Source: Candidatus Microgenomates bacterium (GTDB taxonomy: Bacteria > Patescibacteriota > Microgenomatia > JACQLA01). From it: 64,000 bases of DNA. Below, piece after piece: positions 37,974 through 54,068 of the stretch. The stretch spans positions 132,339-196,338 of the forward strand of contig JACQLA010000005.1 of the NCBI GenBank assembly GCA_016204255.1, written 5' to 3'. The position numbers and the translations under genes are program-made. Numbering within the stretch: position 1 is the first letter of the stretch; each line of letters opens with the position of its first letter. The notes beneath the pieces were generated by a model. That model worked only from the letters and a program-made list of their open reading frames with translations. It did no database searches and was not told where the DNA came from.

Positions 37974-39824
37974 ATGCGAGCTAATGCCTTTTCTACACAA
38001 AAGGCCAAAATCGTGGGGAACTCTCAGGATGAGAGCTGGTCTCAAGCCCTGACTTTGGTCAATTTACAAATTGTTTTAAGTCTCTCCGGTGGCGATGAAA
38101 ATTCAACGCTGGGAAAAGAGCTGATCGCCTTTTTAACGCAAGAAGATCATTTTCAAAAAGAGAACCTTGCCGAGCTTGCTCTGCTCGGGCAAAAGTTAAA
38201 AGAAAAAGTTCCCCCGGAAAAAAACTTATCCTTAATTTTAGGATTGACGGTCAGAAACGCTCTTTATTTGGTATCTTTTGGCGGCCAGGCCTTTTTAAAG
38301 CGGGGAGAAAAAATGGTGGAGGTTTTAAATGGGGAAGGAAAGACTTCGGGATTTCTAAACGATGAGGATATTGTTATTTTGGGGACGAACCATTTTTTTC
38401 AGGTTATTTCTGAAGACTTGGTTCAAAATCTGGATCATCACTCTCCTGAGGAGATTGCAGAAAGATTAGCCTCGTTGATTTTGAAAGCAGAGGAAAATGG
38501 CGATTGTGCCGCCTTAATTTTAAAATTTGCAAAAAACCAGGAAGATCAGGTTTGGGAAGAAGAGACAAGGGTGGAGGAAAAAATGACGACGACGGTGGTT
38601 ACAGAAGAACATGGAGAAGAAAGGTCTAAAAATAATTATTTTAACCTCTCTGTTTTTCTAAATTTTTTAAAATCGAGGATACCAAAATCTAAGCGACCGT
38701 TGTATCTTGCGGGGTCGGGTGAAGAACGGTCTAAAAAAACTCTTTTGACGGTAGCCTTGCTCATTATTGTTTTACTCATTATAAGTATTGTTTTGGGTGC
38801 CGTTAAAAAACGCCAGGATGAGCAATCTGCGCAATTTAATGAGCTCTATCAATCAGTCAATCAGAAGTATGAGGATGGTAAGGGTTTACTTGGCCTAAAT
38901 GATGCCTTGGCTAAGGAACAGCTTTCTCAGGCTTTAAGGGGGATGGAGGAGATTAACGCGGTAGACACCTGGAATTCCGGACAAAAGAAAAAAATTGAGG
39001 AACTTGAGAAGAAAATTAATGAAGATTTGGTAACCGCCTCGCGCCTTTATAAAATCCCTGAGCCTTCCGTTTTTTGGGATACAACTTTAGTTAAAGAAGG
39101 CAGTCAGGGAAAAAAGTTGGCCATTGCGGCTGATAAAATGGCGATTTTAGATATTAAAAATCATTTAGTTTATTTTCTTTCTATTAAAACAAAAGCGGTT
39201 AAAACACTGGGAATAAAGAACTTGACCGGGGAGAAGTCTTTAGCGATTTTGGGAGATAAAGTTTATGTTTTGGGCGAAGAGGGAGTGGTGGAAATCAACG
39301 CTAAAAATCAAAGCAGCCAGCGGGTAATTAATAAAGAAAATGATTGGGGGGAAACCCAGTTTTTGTCCGCTTACGGTTCAAGTCTGTATATTTTAGACAA
39401 AAATGGTCGGATTTGGAAGTATGCTCAAGGAGACAGCGGTTTTACGTCCGGCCGGAATTATCTTAAGGCAGAAATTACGCCCGATTTTTCTGAAGCCCTG
39501 GGCTTGGCCGTTGATAGCTCCGTTTGGGTTTTATCGGGAGCGGAAATTGTTAAATTTTCCCTTGGAAATCCTGAGAGCTTTTCTATTTCGGGTATTGAGA
39601 GTCTGGGTAATCCCGGCGCCTTTTTCACCAATGAAGAAAATAATAAACTTTATCTTTGGGCTTCTAATCAGCGAAAACTTATAGTTTTAGATAAAAGCGG
39701 CGTTTATCAGTTTCAATATGAATTGGGAGACATTGGGCCGGTAGGCGATATAGCCGCTTCCGAAGAGGAGAAGAAGATCTTTCTTTTGGGGGGAAGTAAA
39801 ATTTACGGCCTAGACATTAAGTAA
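37974..39824 (+). CDS. single-pass membrane protein, C-terminal repeat (beta-propeller-like) domain
   Basis: TM LLTVALLIIVLLIISIVLGAV around residue 255; repeated V(Y/W)VL..G..(I/V) strands in the C-terminal half. Confidence 0.45.
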   Translation: MRANAFSTQKAKIVGNSQDESWSQALTLVNLQIVLSLSGGDENSTLGKELIAFLTQEDHFQKENLAELALLGQKLKEKVPPEKNLSLILGLTVRNALYLVSFGGQAFLKRGEKMVEVLNGEGKTSGFLNDEDIVILGTNHFFQVISEDLVQNLDHHSPEEIAERLASLILKAEENGDCAALILKFAKNQEDQVWEEETRVEEKMTTTVVTEEHGEERSKNNYFNLSVFLNFLKSRIPKSKRPLYLAGSGEERSKKTLLTVALLIIVLLIISIVLGAVKKRQDEQSAQFNELYQSVNQKYEDGKGLLGLNDALAKEQLSQALRGMEEINAVDTWNSGQKKKIEELEKKINEDLVTASRLYKIPEPSVFWDTTLVKEGSQGKKLAIAADKMAILDIKNHLVYFLSIKTKAVKTLGIKNLTGEKSLAILGDKVYVLGEEGVVEINAKNQSSQRVINKENDWGETQFLSAYGSSLYILDKNGRIWKYAQGDSGFTSGRNYLKAEITPDFSEALGLAVDSSVWVLSGAEIVKFSLGNPESFSISGIESLGNPGAFFTNEENNKLYLWASNQRKLIVLDKSGVYQFQYELGDIGPVGDIAASEEEKKIFLLGGSKIYGLDIK

Positions 39825-40301: not shown

Positions 40302-40719
40302 GGGGATGTTAAGATTCGACGGGGAAGCACTTTGAAAACTGCAAGCCGACTTTGATCAAAAGCCGTTAAACAGGGTCAAAAAAACAAATGTCAACAAATT
40401 AGTTGGCAAGGTTACAGGAGCGATGAATGCGTTCGCGCGTGTTTTTACTCCGGTAGCTCCGAATTACGCTTTTGCCTAAAAGCGCTTTGGCGTAAAACGG
40501 CATTTATAGGGTTTTTTCCTGATGAGGCCTTATAGGTGTAAACCTAGTCAGGATGAGAAAAGTTGAGTAGCTGACGTCAGCTTTTCAAATAAAAAGTTAG
40601 CTAGTCTTAATTTTCCAGTCGAAAGGACCAGATTAAGGCGAAACTTTAAATTTCGACTAAGCTTGTAGAAATTTTCAATTTGAATTTCTCGGACCCGGGC
40701 TCATTACCCGGCATCTCCA
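40302..40719 (+). ncRNA. ssrA: tmRNA (ssrA); tag reading frame ends ...APNYAFA* (stop TAA 40477-40479); CCA not encoded
   Basis: 5' GGGGATGTTAAGATTCGACGGGG. 3' T-arm CCGGG/CCCGG. Acceptor GGGGATG pairs with CATCTCC, including the G3:U pair, with discriminator A. Tag ORF gct ccg aat tac gct ttt gcc taa. Confidence 0.8.
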
Positions 40720-40865
40720 CTCTTCGCTCCTAAGGTAAAACTTAGGAGCTGCGAGGTGGCACAGCCACTTTAATTAGTAAGTTCACGGGAATCATAGGCG
40801 GAGAGTGTCCCTACCGTAGCTCGCCAGAGCGAAGGGGGGCTTTTTTATTTTGATAGAATAATTTT

Positions 40866-41108
40866 GTGTATTATGTTTATATATTAAAGCTCAGAGATCA
40901 GACTCATTACATCGGATATTCGGCAGCTTTAAAAGAAAGAGTAAAAGAGCACGCTAAGGGAACTATTTCTCAAACAAAACATCTTTTACCGTGCAATCTT
41001 GTCTTTTATGCGGCTTTCTCATCTAAATTAAAGGCCTTGCAATTCGAAAAATATTTAAAAACTAACTCCGGCTTTGCTTTTAGAAATAAAAGATTGATCG
41101 AAAGATAG
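40866..41108 (+). CDS. small GIY-YIG (URI-domain) nuclease, copy 1 (80 aa)
   Basis: MYYVYILK...HYIGYS...RVKEH...VFYAAF carries the GIY/YIG/R/E pattern; lies 146 nt after the tmRNA 3' end. Confidence 0.8.
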   Translation: MYYVYILKLRDQTHYIGYSAALKERVKEHAKGTISQTKHLLPCNLVFYAAFSSKLKALQFEKYLKTNSGFAFRNKRLIER

Positions 41109-42724: not shown

Positions 42725-43453
42725 TTGATCGTCGTATACTACTATAAAGGTGTGATTTTATCAACTTTACTGGATCTTTTTTTCCCCAAGCGCTGTGTGG
42801 CATGCGGGAAGCATGGTTTCTATCTTTGTTTTTCATGCTTATCCCAGATTAAGTTTGTTAAAGATCCAGTTTGTCCGCTTTGCGAGCGTCCAGCGATCGG
42901 CGGCGCTGCTCATCCGGGTTGTCAAAAACAAAACAGCCTTGACGGTTTAATTTCTGTCTGTTTTTATCAGGGGCCGTTAAGGGAAGCTATTAAGCGGTTG
43001 AAATATAAACCGTGGATTACGGATTTGGGGCAGATTTTAGGTGAGATAATGATTAAAAACGAAAGGTTGTTGCGATTGATTAGTGATAAGGGCCAATGGT
43101 TTCTTATCCCGATTCCCCTGCATCCTAGCCGGGAAAGACAACGCGGGTTTAATCAATCGGAAATTTTAGGCAGGTTACTAGCTGAAAAATTAAAAATAGA
43201 CTTTAGTCCTGCCTTGCTGGTTCGGCAAAAAAGAACTTTACCACAGGCAGAATTACGGGGGACGGAGCGACAGCAAAATATCAGAGGCGTTTTTTCTCTC
43301 AACCCTCGAATTAATAAAAAGATTGATCTAAGGAATCGATCGATTCTTTTAATTGATGATGTTTGGACAACAGGTGCAACATTGCGTGCCGGCGGCCAAA
43401 TTCTTAAAAAATCCGGGGCAAAACGAGTTTGGGGTCTAACTCTGGCGCGTTGA
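42725..43453 (+). CDS. comF: ComF-family phosphoribosyltransferase-like protein
   Basis: N-terminal Cys4 (CVACG..CFSC..CPLC) and PRTase loop LLIDDVWTTGATL. Confidence 0.75.
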   Translation: MIVVYYYKGVILSTLLDLFFPKRCVACGKHGFYLCFSCLSQIKFVKDPVCPLCERPAIGGAAHPGCQKQNSLDGLISVCFYQGPLREAIKRLKYKPWITDLGQILGEIMIKNERLLRLISDKGQWFLIPIPLHPSRERQRGFNQSEILGRLLAEKLKIDFSPALLVRQKRTLPQAELRGTERQQNIRGVFSLNPRINKKIDLRNRSILLIDDVWTTGATLRAGGQILKKSGAKRVWGLTLAR

Positions 43454-43478
43454 ATCGAGGCTCGTTTTTTGCTATACT
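43450..43478 (+). promoter_or_regulatory. candidate promoter for tRNA-Ser(GCT): TTGAAT, 17-nt spacer, TATACT
   Basis: Read directly from the sequence; 10 nt upstream of the tRNA 5' end. Confidence 0.45.
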
Positions 43479-43488
43479 CAAGCTGACT

Positions 43489-43574
43489 GGAGGAGTGACC
43501 GAGTGGCTTATGGTGCAGGTTTGCTAAACCTGTGTCCTGTAAAGGGCGCGTGGGTTCGAATCCCACCTCCTCCG
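43489..43574 (+). tRNA. tRNA-Ser(GCT), class II, CCA not encoded
   Basis: Hand-folded cloverleaf: acceptor GGAGGAG/CTCCTCC, anticodon loop TTGCTAA, long variable arm, T-arm GTGGG-TTCGAAT-CCCAC. Confidence 0.85.
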
Positions 43575-43577
43575 CAA

Positions 43578-43644
43578 CGTAAGAAATCGCTAGGCGATTT
43601 CAACGTTGCTGGAGCGTTGAAATTCACGAAGTGAATTTCTTACG
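43578..43644 (+). repeat. 67-nt nested-palindrome leader (element D) between tRNA-Ser(GCT) and GIY-YIG copy 2
   Basis: CGTAAGAAAT|CGC-TAG-GCG|ATTTCAACG-TTGCTGGAG-CGTTGAAAT|TCAC-GAA-GTGA|ATTTCTTACG. All four helices are perfectly complementary. Confidence 0.7.
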
Positions 43645-43652
43645 CTGCCGCC

Positions 43653-43913
43653 ATGTTCTATTATGTATATATTCTCCGAAGCCAAAAAAGTGGTAGTCTG
43701 TATATCGGATATACGACAGATTTAATAAAGAGGTTCGAACAGCATAATAACGGTAAAAGTCAAGCAACAAAGCCATTCCGACCCTATAAACTTATTTATT
43801 ATGAAGCGTTTTTGGATAGAGTTGATGCAAAGAGGAGAGAGGTATATCTGAAAAGTGGATATGGGAGAAAAACGATAAATAGATTACTTAACAAATATTT
43901 AAAGCAGGGTTAG
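43653..43913 (+). CDS. small GIY-YIG nuclease, copy 2 (86 aa)
   Basis: MFYYVYILRS..LYIGYTTDL..RFEQH..LIYYEAF. Confidence 0.85.
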   Translation: MFYYVYILRSQKSGSLYIGYTTDLIKRFEQHNNGKSQATKPFRPYKLIYYEAFLDRVDAKRREVYLKSGYGRKTINRLLNKYLKQG

Positions 43914-43936
43914 AATATAAAAAATATATTAAGTTT

Positions 43937-44341
43937 ATGGAAATAACAAACGAAAAACTTATCCAAAGGGCACAAAAAATAGTTAAACCAACTAAGCAGC
44001 GGAATGGTTTTTCGATTGCTGATTGTGGGGCCGCTTTGTTGACGGATAAGGGAAATATTTATTTGGGGTTAAGTATTGATACTCCATCAAGTATGGGTTT
44101 TTGTAGCGAACATGCAGCAATAGCTACCATGGTTACTGCCGGAGAATATAAAATCAAAAAAATTGTGGCAGTTCTTGAAGACGGCACAATTTTACCCCCA
44201 TGCGGAAGATGCCGCGAATTCATTTACCAAATTGATAGAGGAAATTTGGAGACAGAGGTGATAATTGCCGAGAACGAAGTGGTTAAACTGAAAGATTTAC
44301 TTCCTTATCCGTGGGATGAGAATTTAGAAAATAGGTTCTAA
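43937..44341 (+). CDS. cdd: cytidine deaminase
   Basis: Zinc ligand motifs CSEHAAI and PCGRCREF. Confidence 0.8.
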   Translation: MEITNEKLIQRAQKIVKPTKQRNGFSIADCGAALLTDKGNIYLGLSIDTPSSMGFCSEHAAIATMVTAGEYKIKKIVAVLEDGTILPPCGRCREFIYQIDRGNLETEVIIAENEVVKLKDLLPYPWDENLENRF

Positions 44342-44370
44342 TGGTGCCAATGGTTCGCCGCAGATATAGA

Positions 44371-44459
44371 GGAAGGGTGTCCGAGTGGTTTAAGGAGATG
44401 GTCTTGAAAACCATTGGATCGTAAGATCCTCGTGGGTTCGAATCCCACCCCTTCCGCCA
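44371..44459 (+). tRNA. tRNA-Ser(TGA), CCA encoded
   Basis: Acceptor GGAAGGG/CCCTTCC, anticodon loop CTTGAAA, long variable arm, T-arm GTGGG-TTCGAAT-CCCAC, GCCA 3' end. Confidence 0.85.
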
Positions 44460-44478
44460 ATTTTTTAAAACTTTTGAT

Positions 44479-44838
44479 ATGAGTATAAAAATTGAGAGAG
44501 CAAATCTTGCTCCCCAAATAGCTTATGATCTTGAGGCTCAAGCGATCACTATTCAGTGGGCTTTAACGGAAGGAGAGCTGGTTAAAATTGCACGTTTTCT
44601 GGAACGGGTTGAGTTAATTGAAGAGCTCGGACTCGAATGGTACCGATTGTATTATAAAAGTGATCAGGGTGATTCAGTGGCCACTGTTTGTAAAGAACAT
44701 GTAGATCAAGCAGTGTTAGATGAAATGAATACCGGAGACACGATGACTTTTATTCAAACCCGAGAGCGAAAGCCAGAAGTTTTTGACGGGCGAGAATTGT
44801 GCGCAGTAGCCGCAATCCTGTCGGGAGAACAGCTTTAA
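44479..44838 (+). CDS. hypothetical protein (119 aa)
   Basis: ORF track only. Confidence 0.4.
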   Translation: MSIKIERANLAPQIAYDLEAQAITIQWALTEGELVKIARFLERVELIEELGLEWYRLYYKSDQGDSVATVCKEHVDQAVLDEMNTGDTMTFIQTRERKPEVFDGRELCAVAAILSGEQL

Positions 44839-44944
44839 AGAAGAAAAAATAACCCGAAGCACCAATTAAATTAATGCCGACATCTTGAAGGCCGAGAAAA
44901 TGATATAATTATTGTGTTCTTCAAGAACAACAAAAGGAGGAAGT

Positions 44945-45562
44945 ATGCCTGCCCGAGAAAATTTAACGGTTATAAGCTCGCAAACGCCTAAAAATAATCC
45001 AGGCGGAGCTCAAAACCAGGTTAGCACATTGAAAGAAAATTCAGGTAAAGAGCAAGAAGAGGTTAGAACTCTCCTTTCCTGGAAGGCAAATTCCCGGCCC
45101 TTTAAAGAGCGGGGGAAGGAGTATTTTAAAACCCTGGGAGCGATTCTTTTTTTTGTCAGTGTGGTTTTGCTTTTTATCAAAGAGTGGCTTTTAATCGGGG
45201 CGATTTGGGCTTTTTTCTTTATTACGTATGTTTTAAGCCGGGTTCCGCCCGAAGATGTTGAGCACAAGATTACTACTCAAGGTATTACGACCGGAGGAAA
45301 AGTTTATCTTTGGCGGGAATTGTCAGACTTCTGGTTTACTCAAAATCATGGCCAGACAGTCTTAAACATTGATATCCTGCCGACAGGGAGGGTTAGATTT
45401 TTAGGACGGCTGCTGATTCTTTTGGGTGATCAATCCGAAACAAAAGTCAGAGAAATTTTGGCTAAATACTTGTCCTACCGCGAGATTCCGGAAAAAAACT
45501 GGATGGATAACGCAAGCGGTTGGCTGGCCAGAAAAATTCCGCTGGAAAAAAGTACAAACTAA
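44945..45562 (+). CDS. two-TM membrane protein (start moved to MPARENL)
   Basis: AGGAGG at 44934-44939, 5 nt before the ATG at 44945; TM pair LGAILFFVSVVLLFI / LLIGAIWAFFFITYVL. Confidence 0.5.
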   Translation: MPARENLTVISSQTPKNNPGGAQNQVSTLKENSGKEQEEVRTLLSWKANSRPFKERGKEYFKTLGAILFFVSVVLLFIKEWLLIGAIWAFFFITYVLSRVPPEDVEHKITTQGITTGGKVYLWRELSDFWFTQNHGQTVLNIDILPTGRVRFLGRLLILLGDQSETKVREILAKYLSYREIPEKNWMDNASGWLARKIPLEKSTN

Positions 45563-45586
45563 TTTCTGCCCGGATCACAACTGTTT

Positions 45587-45660
45587 GTGCCCGTAGCTTA
45601 ACTGGATAGAGCACAAGATTGCGGATCTTGAGGTTGGAGGTTCAAGTCCTCCCGGGCACG
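45587..45660 (+). tRNA. tRNA-Arg(GCG), CCA not encoded
   Basis: Acceptor GTGCCCG/CGGGCAC, anticodon stem CAAGA/TCTTG with loop TTGCGGA, T-arm GGAGG-TTCAAGT-CCTCC. Confidence 0.8.
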
Positions 45661-45662
45661 CA

Positions 45663-45723
45663 ACGTACAAAATCAAAGATTTTTACGTTGCTGAGACGTA
45701 AAATTACTTTGTAATTTGTACGT
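45663..45723 (+). repeat. 61-nt nested-palindrome leader (element A) between tRNA-Arg(GCG) and GIY-YIG copy 3
   Basis: ACGTACAAA|ATC-AAA-GAT|TTTTACGT-TGCTGAG-ACGTAAAA|TTAC-TTT-GTAA|TTTGTACGT. Same architecture as element D with different helix sequences. Confidence 0.7.
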
Positions 45724-45730
45724 CTCGCCC

Positions 45731-45982
45731 ATGTATTTTGTTTATGTGCTCAGAAGCGATAAAGATGCTAGCCTATACATAGGCTATACGGGTAATCTGA
45801 AAAAGCGTTTTATAGAGCACATCACCGGTTTGTCATTAGCCACGAGATATAAAAGACCTTACTCATTGATCTACTATGAAGCTTTTGTAGATAGAGTTGA
45901 CGCAAAAGACAGGGAAATTTATTTGAAAAGCGGCTGGGGCTTTAGAAGCATAAAAAAGATATTAAAGCGGTCTTTAAAGTAG
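45731..45982 (+). CDS. small GIY-YIG nuclease, copy 3 (83 aa; start moved from 45716 to the MYFVYVLRS ATG)
   Basis: MYFVYVLRS..LYIGYTGNL..RFIEH..LIYYEAF. The other copies all start directly at the M(Y/F)(Y/F)VY motif. The stop lies 2 nt before tRNA-Ser(CGA). Confidence 0.85.
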   Translation: MYFVYVLRSDKDASLYIGYTGNLKKRFIEHITGLSLATRYKRPYSLIYYEAFVDRVDAKDREIYLKSGWGFRSIKKILKRSLK

Positions 45983-45984
45983 CT

Positions 45985-46068
45985 GGAGGGTTGGCCGAGC
46001 GGTTTAAGGCGCTGGTTTCGAAAACCAGTGGGCGTAAGCCCTCACAGGTTCGAATCCTGTACCCTCCG
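45985..46068 (+). tRNA. tRNA-Ser(CGA)
   Basis: Acceptor GGAGGGT/ACCCTCC, anticodon loop TTCGAAA, long variable arm, T-arm ACAGG-TTCGAAT-CCTGT. Confidence 0.85.
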
Positions 46069-46098
46069 CCCGTATCGCTAACGAAACTTCGCTAAGTT

Positions 46099-46172
46099 GT
46101 GCCCGTAGCTCAGTGGATTAGAGCATCAGTTTCCGGAACTGGGGGTCGGAGGTTCGAATCCTCCCGGGCACG
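46099..46172 (+). tRNA. tRNA-Arg(CCG)
   Basis: Acceptor GTGCCCG/CGGGCAC (identical to the GCG isoacceptor), anticodon loop TTCCGGA, T-arm GGAGG-TTCGAAT-CCTCC. Confidence 0.85.
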
Positions 46173-46183
46173 CAGTTAATTTT

Positions 46184-46267
46184 GGAGGAGTCGGATAGCG
46201 GTTCATTCCACACGCTTGGAAAGCGTGCGAGCGCAAGCTCACGTGGGTTCGAATCCCACCTCCTCCG
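46184..46267 (+). tRNA. tRNA-Ser(GGA)
   Basis: Acceptor GGAGGAG/CTCCTCC, anticodon stem CACGC/GCGTG with loop TTGGAAA, variable arm GAGC-GCAA-GCTC, T-arm GTGGG-TTCGAAT-CCCAC. Confidence 0.85.
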
Positions 46268-46269
46268 CA

Positions 46270-46312
46270 GCGTCAAACGCGGCTGGGACGTAAAATTACT
46301 GGCAATTTGCGT
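46270..46312 (+). repeat. solo leader-like element C (hairpin, GGCTGGG linker, ACGTAAAATT hairpin) with no GIY-YIG ORF
   Basis: GCG-TCAAA-CGC, GGCTGGG, ACGTAAAATT-ACTGGC-AATTTGCGT. Shares the GCTGGRACGTAAAATTAC core with elements A and B. Confidence 0.6.
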
Positions 46313-46334
46313 CTTGCCATTGATTATCTCTACT

Positions 46335-46757
46335 ATGAAAATAATGATTTGCGGTAGCATGCATTTTTCCCGGGAAATGATGATCGCCAAGGAAAAGCTG
46401 GAAAAAGCCGGCCACCAGGTTTCACTGCCAACCGATATTGATCTCCATTTAAACGACCCCGAGTTTATTGATAATTTTGATTTAAATTACGAACATTGTT
46501 TAAAAAACGATGTCATGTGGAAATGTTTTGATCTGGTGGCTCAAGCCGAGGCCATTTTGGTTTTAAATTATCCCCGCAGCGAAATTTCGGGTTACATTGG
46601 GGCCTCATCTTTAATGGAGATCGGCCTGGCTTATTATTTACATAAAAAAATCTTTCTTTTATATCCTGTCCCCAAACCATCTCAGGCCCGCTGGGCTCAT
46701 GAAATTGAGATTATTCAGCCGGTGATTTTAAACGGCGATTTGTCCAAAATCAAATAG
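46335..46757 (+). CDS. nucleoside 2-deoxyribosyltransferase-like protein (start moved out of the tRNA to MKIMICGS)
   Basis: The track ORF start (46182) runs through tRNA-Ser(GGA). MKIMICGSM... and ...SSLMEIGLAYYLHKKIFLL resemble the NDT-like fold. Weak call. Confidence 0.45.
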   Translation: MKIMICGSMHFSREMMIAKEKLEKAGHQVSLPTDIDLHLNDPEFIDNFDLNYEHCLKNDVMWKCFDLVAQAEAILVLNYPRSEISGYIGASSLMEIGLAYYLHKKIFLLYPVPKPSQARWAHEIEIIQPVILNGDLSKIK

Positions 46758-51175: not shown

Positions 51176-51236
51176 AATAGGCTGGATTTCTTCTTATTTG
51201 AATGATAAAATAGCAAGCGTAATTTAATACAATCCG

Positions 51237-51287
51237 CCACGTCTAGCGTGGCTGGAACGTAAAATTACTTTGTAATTTATACGTTCC
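51237..51287 (+). repeat. leader element B (hairpin CCACG-TCTAG-CGTGG, CTGGA linker, long hairpin GGAACGTAAAATTAC-TTT-GTAATTTATACGTTCC)
   Basis: The second hairpin differs from that of element A by a single G-to-A substitution (ACGTAAAATTACTTTGTAATTT[G/A]TACGT). Confidence 0.6.
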
Positions 51288-51337
51288 GCGGTAGCTCTCC
51301 GCCAGCTGGCGGAGGTAGAGTGGCGTCCTAAAGATAA

Positions 51338-51589
51338 ATGTATTTTGTGTACGCTATTTATAATAGAAAACACGGTAAAATTTATATTGGGCAAACGAAA
51401 GATTTAGAAACAAGATTGTATCTTCATGAAGAACATGTGTTTAACAATAGTTTTACCGCCATGTTTGATGGAGCTTGGGAATTAATTTATAAAGAGGCGG
51501 TGGAGGATCGCAGACGAGCTTTGTTAAGAGAAAAACAACTCAAAAGTTTTAGAGGAAGAGAATTTGTAAAAAGACATATTCCGCGGTAG
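51338..51589 (+). CDS. small GIY-YIG nuclease, copy 4 (83 aa); stop codon lies inside tRNA-Asn
   Basis: MYFVYAIYN..IYIGQT..RLYLH..LIYKEA; the last codons ccg cgg tag are tRNA-Asn positions 2-10. Confidence 0.75.
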   Translation: MYFVYAIYNRKHGKIYIGQTKDLETRLYLHEEHVFNNSFTAMFDGAWELIYKEAVEDRRRALLREKQLKSFRGREFVKRHIPR

Positions 51590-51654
51590 CTCAATGGTAG
51601 AGCAAATCCCTGTTAAGGATGAGGTTGCTGGTCCGAATCCAGCCCGCGGAGCCA
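51580..51654 (+). tRNA. tRNA-Asn(GTT), CCA encoded
   Basis: Acceptor TCCGCGG/CCGCGGA, D-arm GCTC-AATGGTA-GAGC, anticodon loop CTGTTAA, T-arm GCTGG-TCCGAAT-CCAGC, GCCA 3' end. Confidence 0.85.
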
Positions 51655-51689
51655 AGCGGCACTTAATATACCCAAAAAGAAACGTATTT

Positions 51690-52373
51690 ATGGCGCCTAC
51701 CCCTTTAGATACAAAACATTATAAGATTCAGAATCTGGAAAAAATTGCTGAATTGGTGGGATGTAAAGATAGACTAGAAAAATATATTGGAGATATAGAA
51801 AAAGTTTTTCCTACCATAGAAGAGATATTCGGTAAAAAATGGAATGACGATTACATTTATATTGAGCTGACTGATTCTACAGATTCTGGTGGATATGGTC
51901 GTCCAGGTGGTCGTCATGCTGTCTCTATAGGAATTTACGATAAAATTATTCAGGAAAAAGAGTATCCAGAAAATTTGTGGGGTTGTTTGCTTCACGAAAC
52001 TTTACATGCATTTATGAATCCAATTATTCATGGACCACCCGAAAGGTCTAAACAGGGAGGTCCAAATAAATTAGATGGATGTTTTGATAATGAACCTTTT
52101 ACTAGAGCTTTCCAAGGATTAGTCTATCTATCTTTGAAGAAAAAAGGGGAGATAACTACCGATTTATGTAATGAGTTTTTAAATAGATTAGAAAACGAAT
52201 TAAATCAAGAAGCACGGATTAGACTTTATAAAAGATATATCACTTTTTTTACGAAAAATGCTAGTTTTTTCTCAATATTTATAAGGAATTTGGATTTGTC
52301 TCCAAGCTCCATTATCCGAGATAATTTTTGGGAAGATTTAGAAAAACTTGAGAAAAAGGTAGAGGGTATTTAA
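51690..52373 (+). CDS. HExxH-motif protein (putative zinc metallopeptidase-like); start moved downstream of the tRNA
   Basis: LLHETLHAFMNP; the track start 51594 lies inside tRNA-Asn, and the first ATG after the tRNA is 51690. Confidence 0.45.
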   Translation: MAPTPLDTKHYKIQNLEKIAELVGCKDRLEKYIGDIEKVFPTIEEIFGKKWNDDYIYIELTDSTDSGGYGRPGGRHAVSIGIYDKIIQEKEYPENLWGCLLHETLHAFMNPIIHGPPERSKQGGPNKLDGCFDNEPFTRAFQGLVYLSLKKKGEITTDLCNEFLNRLENELNQEARIRLYKRYITFFTKNASFFSIFIRNLDLSPSSIIRDNFWEDLEKLEKKVEGI

Positions 52374-52382
52374 TAACCAATT

Positions 52383-54068
52383 TTAGGCAACAGCTGGAAC
52401 AAGAGAGGGTCTGACTTTCTCTATTTCTTCTCTTATCTGCTGAACTAGCCTAAAATCCTCAAAAGTTTTGATAGTACATGCTAATTTTGTGGCTATATTT
52501 GAATTATGATTCTCAGTGCTTATTATGCCAAGTTTAGCCTCGTTGAGGACTTTAAGTGCTGGACTGTATTCAACTTCCACTATTCTCTTATCTTGTAACC
52601 ATATCTTTTGGAAGAAGAAATGCAGATAGGCTCTTTTGTGGTCTATATCAGCTTTGTTGTAGGCTTTGACTATATTTTGAGTAAGGAATAGCACTTCATC
52701 AATAGCGGATATATCAATCGTTCGTACTTTGTCCTGTTCAGCAAGCTCTTTTTGAATATCAAGCAGTTCAGAATCTAACTTTGCATTTATACGTTTAAAT
52801 GCCTCACCGCCAACATTTCCTTCCATCAATTGAGCTTCTAGTTTCTCCCGTTTCATTTCTATACCATCACGTCTGTTGCAGAGAGCCTTTTTAGCTGTTT
52901 TTACTAGACCAACACTGTTGTCATATACTTGTTTAATGTTTGTTGTAACTGCATCAACAAATTCTTGGGTAAACTCAAGTTTGGCTACTTCTTCCTGTAC
53001 TTGTTTCTCTAAATTCTCAAGTTCAACATATTTAGAATCACATTGACCTCTTTTTCCAACCTGAGAACAGTGGTAGTAACCTATTCGACCACCCCTTGTT
53101 TTAAATTTAGGATGATAGTGCCATTCAGCTGTATACCTTTTTTTACAGTTCCGACAAAAGATAAGACCTCTTAAAAGAAAGTTATGTGTTCTTCTTCTCA
53201 ACCCGTAAGTTCCTTTTTCACTGAGTATCCGTTGGACTAGATCAAAAGTTTCCTTATCAATAAGGGAAGTGTGTTTACCCATACCTTCATGCCCGCCATG
53301 CTGCATCCAACCCCAATAAAATTTATTTTTTAACATTGTATGAGTAACTGAGAACTGGATTGGTCTTCCTTTTCTGCCCAAAACACCATTTTTATGTAAG
53401 TATTGTCTGATATCGTATATCGAATAATCCCTCGTGGCATACATTTGAAATGCTTTTGTTATAAATGGCGCTCTTGTAGGGTCAGGAACAACTATCTTTT
53501 TATCGTATACACCTGTTGGGTTCTTATTAACAACATTGTTATAGCCTAGTGGGGCGACTGAAGGATAATAACCTGCTTTGAATTTTTCTGCGGCTGTTTG
53601 TTTTACTTTGTAACTTGTTAATCGAGGCGGGATTGAGTGGATTACTGCTATTAATTCGTCAATGGCATCCCCAAAAGGATTATCATCAAAACTTACTATT
53701 CCTGTTAATGGAATTATTTTTGTATTGTATTTTCGAAGGGTTTGCTTGATGACTAAGTACTCTAATGTATTTCTTGCTACTCTCGAACTATCCTGGACGA
53801 TAACAAAGTCAATATCACCATTAGCACAACGAGTTAATATTTCCTGAAAAGCAAGACGGTTTGTTAGAGAAGTACCCGAAACACCGCCATCGACATAAAC
53901 GTCTTCTACAAGTTCACCATTTAGTTCTTGAACCTTTGTGATTATCTGTGTTTGTTGAACGTCTAAACTAAGTCCATTATCCCGCTGGTCTGGGGTACTT
54001 ACCCTCACGTAACCCAGGCATTTAGGTTTTCCATTATTTGATGTATTTTGTGTTTCTTGTAATTGCAT
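52383..54068 (-). CDS. large serine recombinase (resolvase domain, recombinase domain, zinc ribbon, coiled coil)
   Basis: N-terminal YVRVSTPDQ catalytic Ser context; CRNC...C..C Cys cluster; C-terminal coiled coil; 561 aa. Confidence 0.85.
   Translation of the reverse strand: MQLQETQNTSNNGKPKCLGYVRVSTPDQRDNGLSLDVQQTQIITKVQELNGELVEDVYVDGGVSGTSLTNRLAFQEILTRCANGDIDFVIVQDSSRVARNTLEYLVIKQTLRKYNTKIIPLTGIVSFDDNPFGDAIDELIAVIHSIPPRLTSYKVKQTAAEKFKAGYYPSVAPLGYNNVVNKNPTGVYDKKIVVPDPTRAPFITKAFQMYATRDYSIYDIRQYLHKNGVLGRKGRPIQFSVTHTMLKNKFYWGWMQHGGHEGMGKHTSLIDKETFDLVQRILSEKGTYGLRRRTHNFLLRGLIFCRNCKKRYTAEWHYHPKFKTRGGRIGYYHCSQVGKRGQCDSKYVELENLEKQVQEEVAKLEFTQEFVDAVTTNIKQVYDNSVGLVKTAKKALCNRRDGIEMKREKLEAQLMEGNVGGEAFKRINAKLDSELLDIQKELAEQDKVRTIDISAIDEVLFLTQNIVKAYNKADIDHKRAYLHFFFQKIWLQDKRIVEVEYSPALKVLNEAKLGIISTENHNSNIATKLACTIKTFEDFRLVQQIREEIEKVRPSLVPAVA

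Follow-up and report, generated by a model that had tools for sequence, protein, structure and literature searches.

The question raised by this locus is what kind of element can fill, to the base, the gap between a tRNA-Arg(GCG) gene and the start codon of a gene for an 83-aa GIY-YIG nuclease, and whether it should be seen as a leader of the nuclease gene, as a signal of the tRNA operon or as an element in its own right. The window analysed here is the whole 64-kb stretch of Candidatus Microgenomates contig JACQLA010000005.1 that contains the locus; coordinates are positions in this window, and all window features are on the + strand unless stated. We found that the element, henceforth the module, belongs to a double-hairpin repeat family that is widespread in the Candidate Phyla Radiation (CPR, Patescibacteria), keeps a fixed register with tRNA gene ends and had not been described before. 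Together with the nuclease gene, it has the appearance of a selfish insertion cassette of a new type, unlike an ordinary terminator or leader. The literature searched on GIY-YIG proteins with tRNAs and hairpins, on UPF0213/YhbQ, on COG2827 and on palindromic repeats of CPR bacteria did not describe the element.

A double hairpin in register with the tRNA end

Between 45660 and 45735 the sequence consists, in order, of the G discriminator of the tRNA, CA, ACGTACAAAATCAAAGATTTTTACGT, TGCTGAG, ACGTAAAATTACTTTGTAATTTGTACGT (ending at 45723), CTCGCCC and the ATG at 45731, while the 3' strand of the tRNA acceptor stem occupies 45653-45659 and the discriminator is G45660. A first-pass annotation of the sequence had described a 61-nt element of nested palindromes, which starts 2 nt after the discriminator, ends 7 nt (CTCGCCC) before the ATG, exactly fills the gap between tRNA and nuclease, and leaves CAA in the place of CCA. 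The coordinates and offsets are correct by the sequence and the gap is indeed filled exactly. The 61 nt are present as described, but the paired structure is larger, running from 45660 to 45726 with an additional GCC at 45727-45729, and the module overlaps positions 73-76 of the tRNA. Likewise, CAA does replace CCA, but this is no mere loss of CCA, since CAA is a covarying stem position at which a change from TGG to TTG compensates.

The layout of the module is box 1 (GCMA), a tRNA-proximal hairpin (H1), box 2 (TKGC), a T, a distal hairpin (H2) and box 3 (GCM), the window copy spanning 45660-45729. The canonical form in relatives is tRNA-G73-CCA-CGTAATAAAT..loop..ATTTAAACG-TGG-C, T, H2, GCC(A), ATG, where the encoded CCA pairs with TGG inside H1; in the window copy these have become CAA and TTG. 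The first base of H1 is the tRNA discriminator itself, and the hairpin ends in GCAACGT...ACGTTGC with a bulged C on its 5' arm. H2 ends in GAGACGT...ACGTCTC, its core is nearly the reverse complement of the H1 core and its bulge is mirrored to the 3' arm. An asymmetry of this kind, be it a one-base bulge or a 2x1 internal loop, is conserved in both hairpins, the affected arm being the 5' one in H1 and the 3' one in H2. The RNA fold of the module region has -29.2 kcal/mol (z = -7.3), with none of 200 shuffled sequences folding as well, and 0 of 200 shuffles were as stable as the RNA fold of the copy at 43574-43652. Both DNA strands of the module fold equally well, with -22.1 and -21.9 kcal/mol (z = -8.8 and -7.5).

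Two alignments were used to examine the pairing, one of eight hand-picked copies and the other of 70 distinct metagenome copies aligned with a covariance model. In the hand-picked set 92% is paired, and 13 pairs show double changes with none showing one-sided changes. In the 70-copy alignment, whose fit to the model favours the structure although the hand alignment gives the same pattern, 94% of the stem positions are paired, 283 double-change cells contrast with 77±8 in shuffles, and 18 of the 31 pairs covary; sliding the partners by 1-3 columns lowers the pairing to 33-45%. Stem mismatches among ~2010 cells comprise 18 G·T, 11 A·C and 18 others, revealing no G·U bias. The pairs that close H1 are GCAA..TTGC in 45 copies and GCCA..TGGC in 23, and the alternatives CCA:TGG and CAA:TTG covary with one exception among the 70 copies. 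The left flank GCMA always pairs with TKGC, which is also simply the H1 stem. The GC content of the module is 27-48%.

Cross-pairing between H1 and H2, as implied by the description of the palindromes as nested, is not required. A four-way or nested arrangement would leave 90% paired versus 92% in the local arrangement, a compatibility that arises because H2 is close to the reverse complement of H1, but the strongest covarying pairs (3:38 and 44-46:77-79) and the outer stems are local. Given this local covariation, and given that loci L005 and L007 mix hairpin types, we treated the element as two independent hairpins.

Comparison of the window with the orthologous cassette of L179 showed ~66 of 70 module positions to be identical, with changes only in the two loops, whereas in the same alignment, counted by hand, the tRNA-Arg is ~80% and the nuclease coding sequence ~68% identical. 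This holds only for these two orthologues: the generalization that the module is more conserved than the nuclease coding sequence was rejected, as paralogous cassettes have similar mean identities for the two (r = 0.42).

Copies, insertion and spread

A covariance model of the module, run on the window with filters off, recovered four copies only (82, 78, 48 and 21 bits). The next match, a weak one of 18 bits at 38615-38682, falls within the coding region of a 616-aa open reading frame (ORF) and was rejected as a copy. The 12-mer ACGTAAAATTAC has three exact matches in the window, at 45696, 46288 and 51257, against ~0.008 expected by chance, and the three copies carrying it are united in repeat family D5. 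Chance does not account for the repeat, which is real and restricted to the tRNA cluster of the window. This agrees with the at least four repeats of the first-pass annotation, including a degenerate one at 46288-46312; the near-verbatim recurrence of the 3' hairpin that it noted farther downstream is also there, with one substitution, at the bulge, although it lies at 51257-51284, one base from the position given (the near-identical copy of H2 as a whole spans 51254-51287). An intrinsic terminator, including a generic one placed after unrelated genes, was rejected, as the four copies in 64 kb are all beside tRNA genes or tRNA fragments and there is no T-run or terminator call. The tRNA-Ser(TGA), tRNA-Ser(CGA), tRNA-Arg(CCG) and tRNA-Asn genes of the same window are without a module.

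Metagenome contigs of the Joint Genome Institute (JGI) were scanned for H1 alone with the pattern ACGTAMNAAATN{3,25}ATTTNWACGTKGCT, which biases the sample toward canonical copies and gave at least 120 contigs and 128 instances among the matches listed, to which all metagenome counts below refer. In 118 instances the flanks sufficed to establish position, and a stricter subset of 110 was used for nuclease linkage. The module abuts the 3' end of a same-strand tRNA in 67 of the 118, at 11 different tRNA genes; the 63 such hosts in the stricter subset are Ser (47), Asp (7), Arg (4), Trp (3) and Glu (2). Another 17 sit flipped against the 5' end of a tRNA on the opposite strand, anchored at its position +1 and with H1 again proximal to the tRNA. 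Altogether 84 copies abut a tRNA end and 34 do not, several of the latter having tRNA-end remnants and two being chance matches inside genes. Such remnants of tRNA 3' ends precede modules lacking a tRNA in L002, L004, L005, L006 and L038. A GIY-YIG ORF starts within 200 nt downstream of H1 in 37 of 110 copies (28 with a tRNA and 9 without), and when set against the counts at tRNA 3' ends and flipped at 5' ends, this contradicts the view of the module as primarily a nuclease leader.

The junction between tRNA-Arg(GCG) and tRNA-Ser(CGA) could be compared among relatives. The spacer between the two genes measures 4-8 nt in L090, L097, L141 and L143 and 24 nt in L133, while in the window and L179 the same pair is 322 nt apart and the interval is exactly the module plus the nuclease gene. 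By this comparison, the module and the 83-aa GIY-YIG gene are an apparent insertion of ~320 bp between tRNA-Arg(GCG) and tRNA-Ser(CGA), inside one tRNA transcription unit. In these five relatives it is tRNA-Ser(CGA) that bears a module, which it does not in the window. A flank-synteny BLAST for genome-wide empty sites was swamped by cross-matches among tRNAs and modules, and the clean empty sites are those of the Arg(GCG)-Ser(CGA) junction only.

Other loci display further traits of a repeat. One contig (L183) has three tRNA-Ser genes that differ from one another but are each followed by the same module; the identity extends over more than 85 nt and takes in part of the next element past box 3, which in terms of sequence indicates recent spread or gene conversion. 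Tandem or nested copies are found in L092, L093, L098 and L111. The nuclease gene lies between H1, after tRNA-Asp, and H2 copies, before tRNA-Phe, in L003 (2946-3338), has a module on one side and an inverted one on the other in L157 (2967-3407), and is followed by a tRNA-Ser 3' remnant and a second module in L002 (1467-1909). The module behaves as a repeat element, with both orientations, tandem arrays, identical copies at different tRNAs and presence or absence between relatives.

Relatives of the nuclease were sought among species-representative genomes, which gave 80 loci (L002-L081). The covariance model detected the module upstream of all nine closest homologues, those with at least 58% identity (L002-L009 and L046), where it lies between a tRNA, or the remnant of a tRNA 3' end, and the ATG; the hosts are metagenome-assembled genomes labelled Woese-, Curtiss-, Gottesman-, Berkel- and Saccharibacteria. 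The window itself has a gene content in keeping with the CPR, with a tmRNA, SmpB, small genes and relatives labelled Microgenomates. About 32 of the 80 loci have a same-strand tRNA or transfer-messenger RNA (tmRNA) within 400 nt, often 0-20 nt from the start or stop codon. The literature searched had no description of a general tRNA linkage of minimal GIY-YIG genes. The H1 pattern had no match in a collection of 2.9 million viral contigs, and we rejected a phage-borne element on this account.

Several observations at other loci touch on the same subjects. The tRNA-linked small GIY-YIG loci carry labels of Patescibacteria, Desulfobacterota, Bacteroidota, Omnitrophota, Zixibacteria and others. 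Three Desulfobacterota loci (L018, 2780-2870; L026, 278-472; L028, 2788-3001) have arrays of GC-rich hairpins, for example GCCATGCACC-ACGTAG-GGTGCATGGC, each closed by GCCA..TGGC, with the array ending in GCCA just before the GIY-YIG ATG; to judge by the sequences, these arrays have the architecture of the CPR module in unrelated sequence. In L021 (4800-4975) the two arms of an H2-like hairpin (CGGCACGT...ACGTGCCG) enclose a complete tRNA-Arg(GCG); before it come an H1 and a partial copy of this tRNA, namely its 5' half as far as the anticodon loop. The arrangement appears to reflect an event within a tRNA gene that involved a module or cassette.

The nuclease partner and its surroundings

The Pfam GIY-YIG domain (PF01541) was found in all four GIY-YIG copies of the window, covering residues 1-67 of the 83 in copy 3. 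A profile of 22 sequences searched against the PDB recovered the nuclear magnetic resonance structures of UPF0213 proteins (1zg2, 2e-13; 1ywl, 2e-10) and SLX1 of several eukaryotes (2e-5 to 2e-4), with I-TevI reaching only E = 0.006. Residues Y5, Y16, G18, R26, H30 and E62 are invariant in the 22 sequences. By its profile matches, the partner ORF is assigned to the Slx1/UPF0213 lineage as a minimal GIY-YIG protein with no auxiliary domain. Prokaryotic Slx1-like proteins are minimal stand-alone GIY-YIG domains without auxiliary DNA-binding domains, and one fusion of GIY-YIG to a TrmH-like tRNA methyltransferase has been reported, with an RNA role suggested for these proteins (Dunin-Horkawicz et al., PMC1564403). 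Slx1 itself is characterized in the literature as a structure-selective nuclease acting on branched DNA.

Clustering of 941 ORFs from within 2 kb of modules yielded GIY-YIG as the only family fixed in position and strand, with 43 loci, among the matches listed, on the same strand as the module and starting ~76 nt after the start of H1. No transposase, integrase, RAYT, TnpA, TnpB, IntI or tyrosine recombinase recurs among these 941 neighbours, the other recurrent families being syntenic housekeeping genes, and the neighbouring ORFs in the window have no Pfam domain of the Y1 (HUH) RAYT type.

Table 1. Coordinates of the module, its parts and adjoining genes in the 64-kb window
Feature	Position	Strand	Details
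tRNA-Arg(GCG)	45587-45660/45661	+	ARAGORN; Rfam tRNA match, 68 bits; CCA not encoded (G-CAA)
H1, tRNA-proximal hairpin	45660-45691	+	RNA and DNA folds, covariation; GCAACGTA(C)AAAATC-AAA-GATTTTTACGTTGC
Single-T spacer between hairpins	45692	+	T in 72/76 aligned copies; follows box 2 TTGC, which closes H1
H2, distal hairpin	45693-45726	+	Folds; 10/15 pairs covary; GAGACGTAAAATTAC-TTT-GTAATTT(G)TACGTCTC
Box 3, GCC(C)	45727-45729 (C at 45730)	+	Tail like discriminator plus CC; directly after H2 stem and directly before ATG
GIY-YIG copy 3, 83 aa	45731-45982	+	Minimal Slx1/UPF0213-type nuclease; PF01541, E = 4e-12
tRNA-Ser(CGA)	45984-46071	+	ARAGORN; starts 1-2 nt past nuclease stop; right border of insertion (empty-site comparison)
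Module copy after tRNA-Ser(GCT)	43574-43652	+	78.4 bits; RNA fold z = -5.9; directly before GIY-YIG copy 2 (43653-43913)
Degenerate module copy after tRNA-Ser(GGA)	46267-46319	+	20.9 bits; family D5; no nuclease gene next
Module copy with short H1 (GCCACG..CGTGGC) and near-verbatim H2	51236-51291	+	48.2 bits; followed by tRNA-Asn 5' fragment and GIY-YIG copy 4 (51338-51589)

The other GIY-YIG copies of the window have different surroundings. The tRNA-Ser(GCT) gene is preceded, at a distance of 10 nt, by a good sigma-70-like promoter (43450-43478; TTGAAT-17-TATACT with extended TG), which is consistent with this tRNA, its module and GIY-YIG copy 2 forming one transcript. Between the module at 51236-51291 and GIY-YIG copy 4 there is a 5' fragment of tRNA-Asn (51285-51320) made up of the first 13 nt TCCGCGGTAGCTC, a 16-nt palindrome TCCGCCAGCTGGCGGA and the D-arm GGTAGAG, and the TAG stop of copy 4 (51587-51589) sits within the real tRNA-Asn, at U8-A9-G10. 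In sequence terms this looks like a nuclease cassette inserted into the 5' part of a tRNA with a duplication that restored it. The ORF ends in L141 and L016 likewise run into, or directly adjoin, the next tRNA. GIY-YIG copy 1 (40866-41108) has no module and comes after a tmRNA (40302-40722), two unrelated hairpins and a T-run terminator-like site; a GIY-YIG gene follows a tmRNA in L074 too. About 730 bp downstream of tRNA-Asn, on the - strand, a large serine recombinase with Resolvase, Recombinase and Zn-ribbon domains (52383-54068) may mark an integrated element at this tRNA. The mechanically called ORF at 51594-52373 (+), whose product has no Pfam match, begins inside tRNA-Asn, and its real start is probably the ATG at 51681.

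Weighing the explanations

We read the module, with a probability of roughly 0.5, as a mobile or concertedly evolving double-hairpin DNA element that is docked on tRNA ends, has a minimal Slx1-like nuclease as its partner and is read through in the tRNA operon. The module would act as folded DNA hairpins or as a cruciform, with the bulge marking the strand, in the manner of repetitive extragenic palindromes (REPs), bacterial interspersed mosaic elements (BIMEs), attC sites and IS200 ends. A structure-specific nuclease with no further domain would recognize the folded module and thereby spread or maintain the cassette. tRNA genes might be targeted for their (single-stranded) DNA, which would offer a stem followed by GCCA or a branched cloverleaf-like fold, and solo modules would be non-autonomous relatives. 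As a secondary layer, the cassette would be read through with the tRNAs because it lacks both a promoter and a terminator. RNase P and RNase Z, in processing the tRNAs on either side, would then release a nuclease mRNA starting with H1-H2, and the H2 stem with GCC, a look-alike of a tRNA acceptor end situated 0-10 nt before an ATG that lacks a Shine-Dalgarno (SD) sequence, may set or protect the 5' end of this mRNA. A bolder version, in which a bare 83-aa nuclease addresses DNA secondary structure, both in its own module and in the fold of the tRNA gene, inserts precisely at either tRNA end and leaves non-autonomous copies, would amount to an unrecognized class of prokaryotic mobile element; we put it forward tentatively, as a possibility with the odds against it.

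Several points weigh against this reading. The copy count covers 64 kb of the source genome, and at the other loci the analysis covered flanks of up to 14 kb; mobility is deduced from comparative patterns, and gene conversion or concerted evolution could explain the identical copies as well. Two thirds of the copies have no nuclease gene in cis, and in most the gene is outside the H1-H2 pair; L003 is the one locus in which the hairpins enclose it, and L157 the one with inverted modules on its two sides. Past the GIY-YIG stop no shared right-end motif was found: what follows is the 5' end of a tRNA, another module, a module in inverse orientation or nothing. A 3-nt target-site duplication (left GCM equal to right GCM) was considered and rejected, the association (Fisher p = 6e-4) being due to the flipped class; among the 11 nuclease-linked copies whose left flank is GCA, 10 carry GCC at the right, which speaks against such a duplication. 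AT-rich stems would by themselves be expected to show part of the scarcity of G·U pairs, and the better retention of box 3 in nuclease-linked copies points to a role at the level of RNA or expression.

This last point bears on the first of the alternatives, in which the hairpins are selected as RNA and serve as leader or punctuation: H1 would sequester the 3' tail of the tRNA, and H2 with GCC, as a mimic of the acceptor/T-arm minihelix of a tRNA, would be cut by RNase Z or RNase P, freeing the tRNA and leaving a nuclease mRNA that is protected by a hairpin or is nearly leaderless. The share of copies with GCC in box 3 is 20/24 among the nuclease-linked, 11/26 among the solo ones beside a tRNA and 0/14 among the flipped (Fisher p = 0.004 for linked versus solo), and it is because of this retention of GCC that we allow for an additional RNA-level role and keep the RNA leader as a serious, if unlikely, explanation. 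In its favour, no promoter-like site was called on the + strand of 45350-46313, leaving the cassette promoterless inside a tRNA operon. A promoter inside the module was rejected for want of a sigma-70-like call, a manual check of TTGCTG...TAATTT giving a poor match. As for termination, neither 43574-43652 nor 45660-45730 has a terminator-like call, and H2 is followed by CTCGCCCATG, with no T-run. The tRNA-Ser(CGA), tRNA-Arg(CCG) and tRNA-Ser(GGA) genes downstream are the sole genes with these anticodons in the window, and, since no promoter was found in this interval, they would depend on read-through and be silenced by efficient termination. The highly stable RNA folds and the RNA role suggested by others from the TrmH-GIY-YIG fusion (PMC1564403) also agree with a leader, as does the position of the ATG, 3-15 nt past H2 in most copies, with an SD-like tetramer in 1 of 38 copies versus 15% of long ORFs. 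The depletion of SD sequences was nevertheless rejected as a signal, as it is marginal (p = 0.04) and SD-like motifs are rare in the background too; with SD use low across the genome, their absence is weak evidence. What tells against selection as RNA is that two thirds of the copies have no nuclease gene downstream and that the 17 flipped copies would be transcribed antisense before a tRNA 5' end, where the logic of minihelix and GCC fails. Moreover, G·U pairs make up 0.9% of the stem cells and do not clearly exceed A·C (18 versus 11), both strands fold equally well, and between orthologues the stems are nearly invariant in sequence, beyond what pairing demands. A known RNA family was also rejected: only tRNA and tmRNA pass the Rfam gathering thresholds, and nothing overlaps the module at E <= 10 in 43400-46450.

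The docked DNA element also has to be weighed against a homing site, in which the module is an immobile, host-derived tRNA-flanking sequence and the GIY-YIG protein a free-standing homing endonuclease, similar to Seg of T4, that recognizes and cuts the module and whose gene is then copied beside it by repair. The fixed spacing of the genes directly after modules, their presence or absence between the same tRNA pair in relatives, the proximity of ~32 of 80 homologues across phyla to a same-strand tRNA or tmRNA, and the insertion of GIY-YIG copy 4 with duplication of the tRNA-Asn 5' part are all in line with homing, and a precedent exists in SegB of T4, a GIY-YIG homing enzyme within a tRNA cluster (PMC2330249). 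However, the 83-aa protein is without the DNA-binding domain that sequence-specific homing enzymes need, the empty Arg(GCG)-Ser(CGA) sites are without the module as well as the gene, the module by itself behaves as a repeat, and homology for repair is available on one side only; taken together, these make homing improbable. Finally, a host signal of the tRNA operon (a terminator, processing signal or operator) with coincidental nuclease neighbours is very improbable, for although the position at tRNA ends is fixed, the stems are strongly conserved and one window copy (46267-46319) follows the last tRNA of a three-tRNA cluster, there is no U-tract, termination would harm the three single-occurrence tRNAs lying downstream of the studied copy, four other tRNAs of the window and the orthologous tRNA junctions of relatives lack the module, a plain double-stranded operator is hard to square with the covariation seen where stem positions vary, and the linkage of 37 of 110 copies to GIY-YIG within 200 nt is far above chance. 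Homing-target and host-signal models are both less consistent with the data than the docked DNA element.

Among known systems, the closest described are the double-hairpin elements (DHEs) and repetitive hairpin elements of fungal and sponge mitochondria, which consist of paired intergenic stem-loops, often near tRNAs, with identity across species and changes confined to loops, and which are suspected to be mobile (PMC10085805, PMC4618339, PMC2800124). They share with the module the two adjacent, repeated, intergenic stem-loops with preserved stems and variable loops, and the loop-only changes between the window and L179 follow the same pattern. Unlike the module, DHEs are mitochondrial and GC-rich, with no fixed register at tRNA positions 73-76 described and no dedicated partner gene established, whereas the module is bacterial, AT-rich, overlaps the discriminator and CCA and is linked to GIY-YIG, a separation drawn from these features. 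To our knowledge, the mechanism of DHE mobility in mitochondria is still unsolved.

The module resembles the REP/BIME (REPIN)-RAYT system in having asymmetric imperfect palindromes arranged as inverted doublets, extragenic and in multiple copies, many of them solo and few beside a single nuclease-type gene that is sometimes flanked by inverted repeats (L003, L157). It differs in lacking GTAG, its conserved boxes being GCMA/TKGC and ACGT, in having a GIY-YIG partner in place of a Y1 HUH RAYT, and in its anchoring to tRNA ends, as against the dispersal of REPs after many genes. With the ends of IS200/IS605 and of their gene-less derivatives, the palindrome-associated transposable elements (PATEs), and with integron attC sites it shares hairpins with extrahelical bases, which in those systems work as folded single-stranded DNA, a mode of action that we infer for the module. 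The complementarity of the flanking GCMA to TKGC at the foot of the hairpin is reminiscent of the pairing between guide and cleavage site in IS200/IS605, although the match of the right flank depends on the class of copy. No TnpA or TnpB recurs by the module, and its hairpins are inverted and not in the same orientation, in contrast to IS200/IS605 and PATEs; nor does it have the GTTRRRY core or the IntI of attC systems, the only recombinase seen being the serine recombinase at 52383-54068.

Enzymes of the SegB type are ~200 aa or longer and have DNA-binding modules, and we know of no palindromic module described for Seg genes. The likeness to SegB of T4 lies in a GIY-YIG gene inserted between tRNA genes and polymorphic for presence or absence (PMC2330249), and the difference in the protein, which here consists of no more than a catalytic domain (83 aa), belongs to the Slx1/UPF0213 lineage and has no separate DNA-binding domain. 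The module departs from each of these systems in at least one of the defining features tested, and it is new in its partner, its target register and its host group.

If the proposed mechanism is true, the cassette would be a GIY-YIG counterpart of REP/RAYT and a bacterial counterpart of the mitochondrial DHEs, and it would provide a bacterial model system for double-hairpin elements. The minimal UPF0213/Slx1-like GIY-YIG proteins are abundant and often present in multiple copies, and the literature searched gave neither a function nor a genomic context for them; the finding would supply this family with a testable partner, a pair of DNA or RNA hairpins, and with a genomic logic centred on tRNA ends. 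The overlap of the module with tRNA positions 73-76, and the compensated change of CCA to CAA, are relevant to the calling of tRNA ends and to inferring the pathway of 3' maturation. For the organisms themselves, the cassette would show that CPR genomes of ~1 Mb tolerate selfish insertions inside essential tRNA operons.

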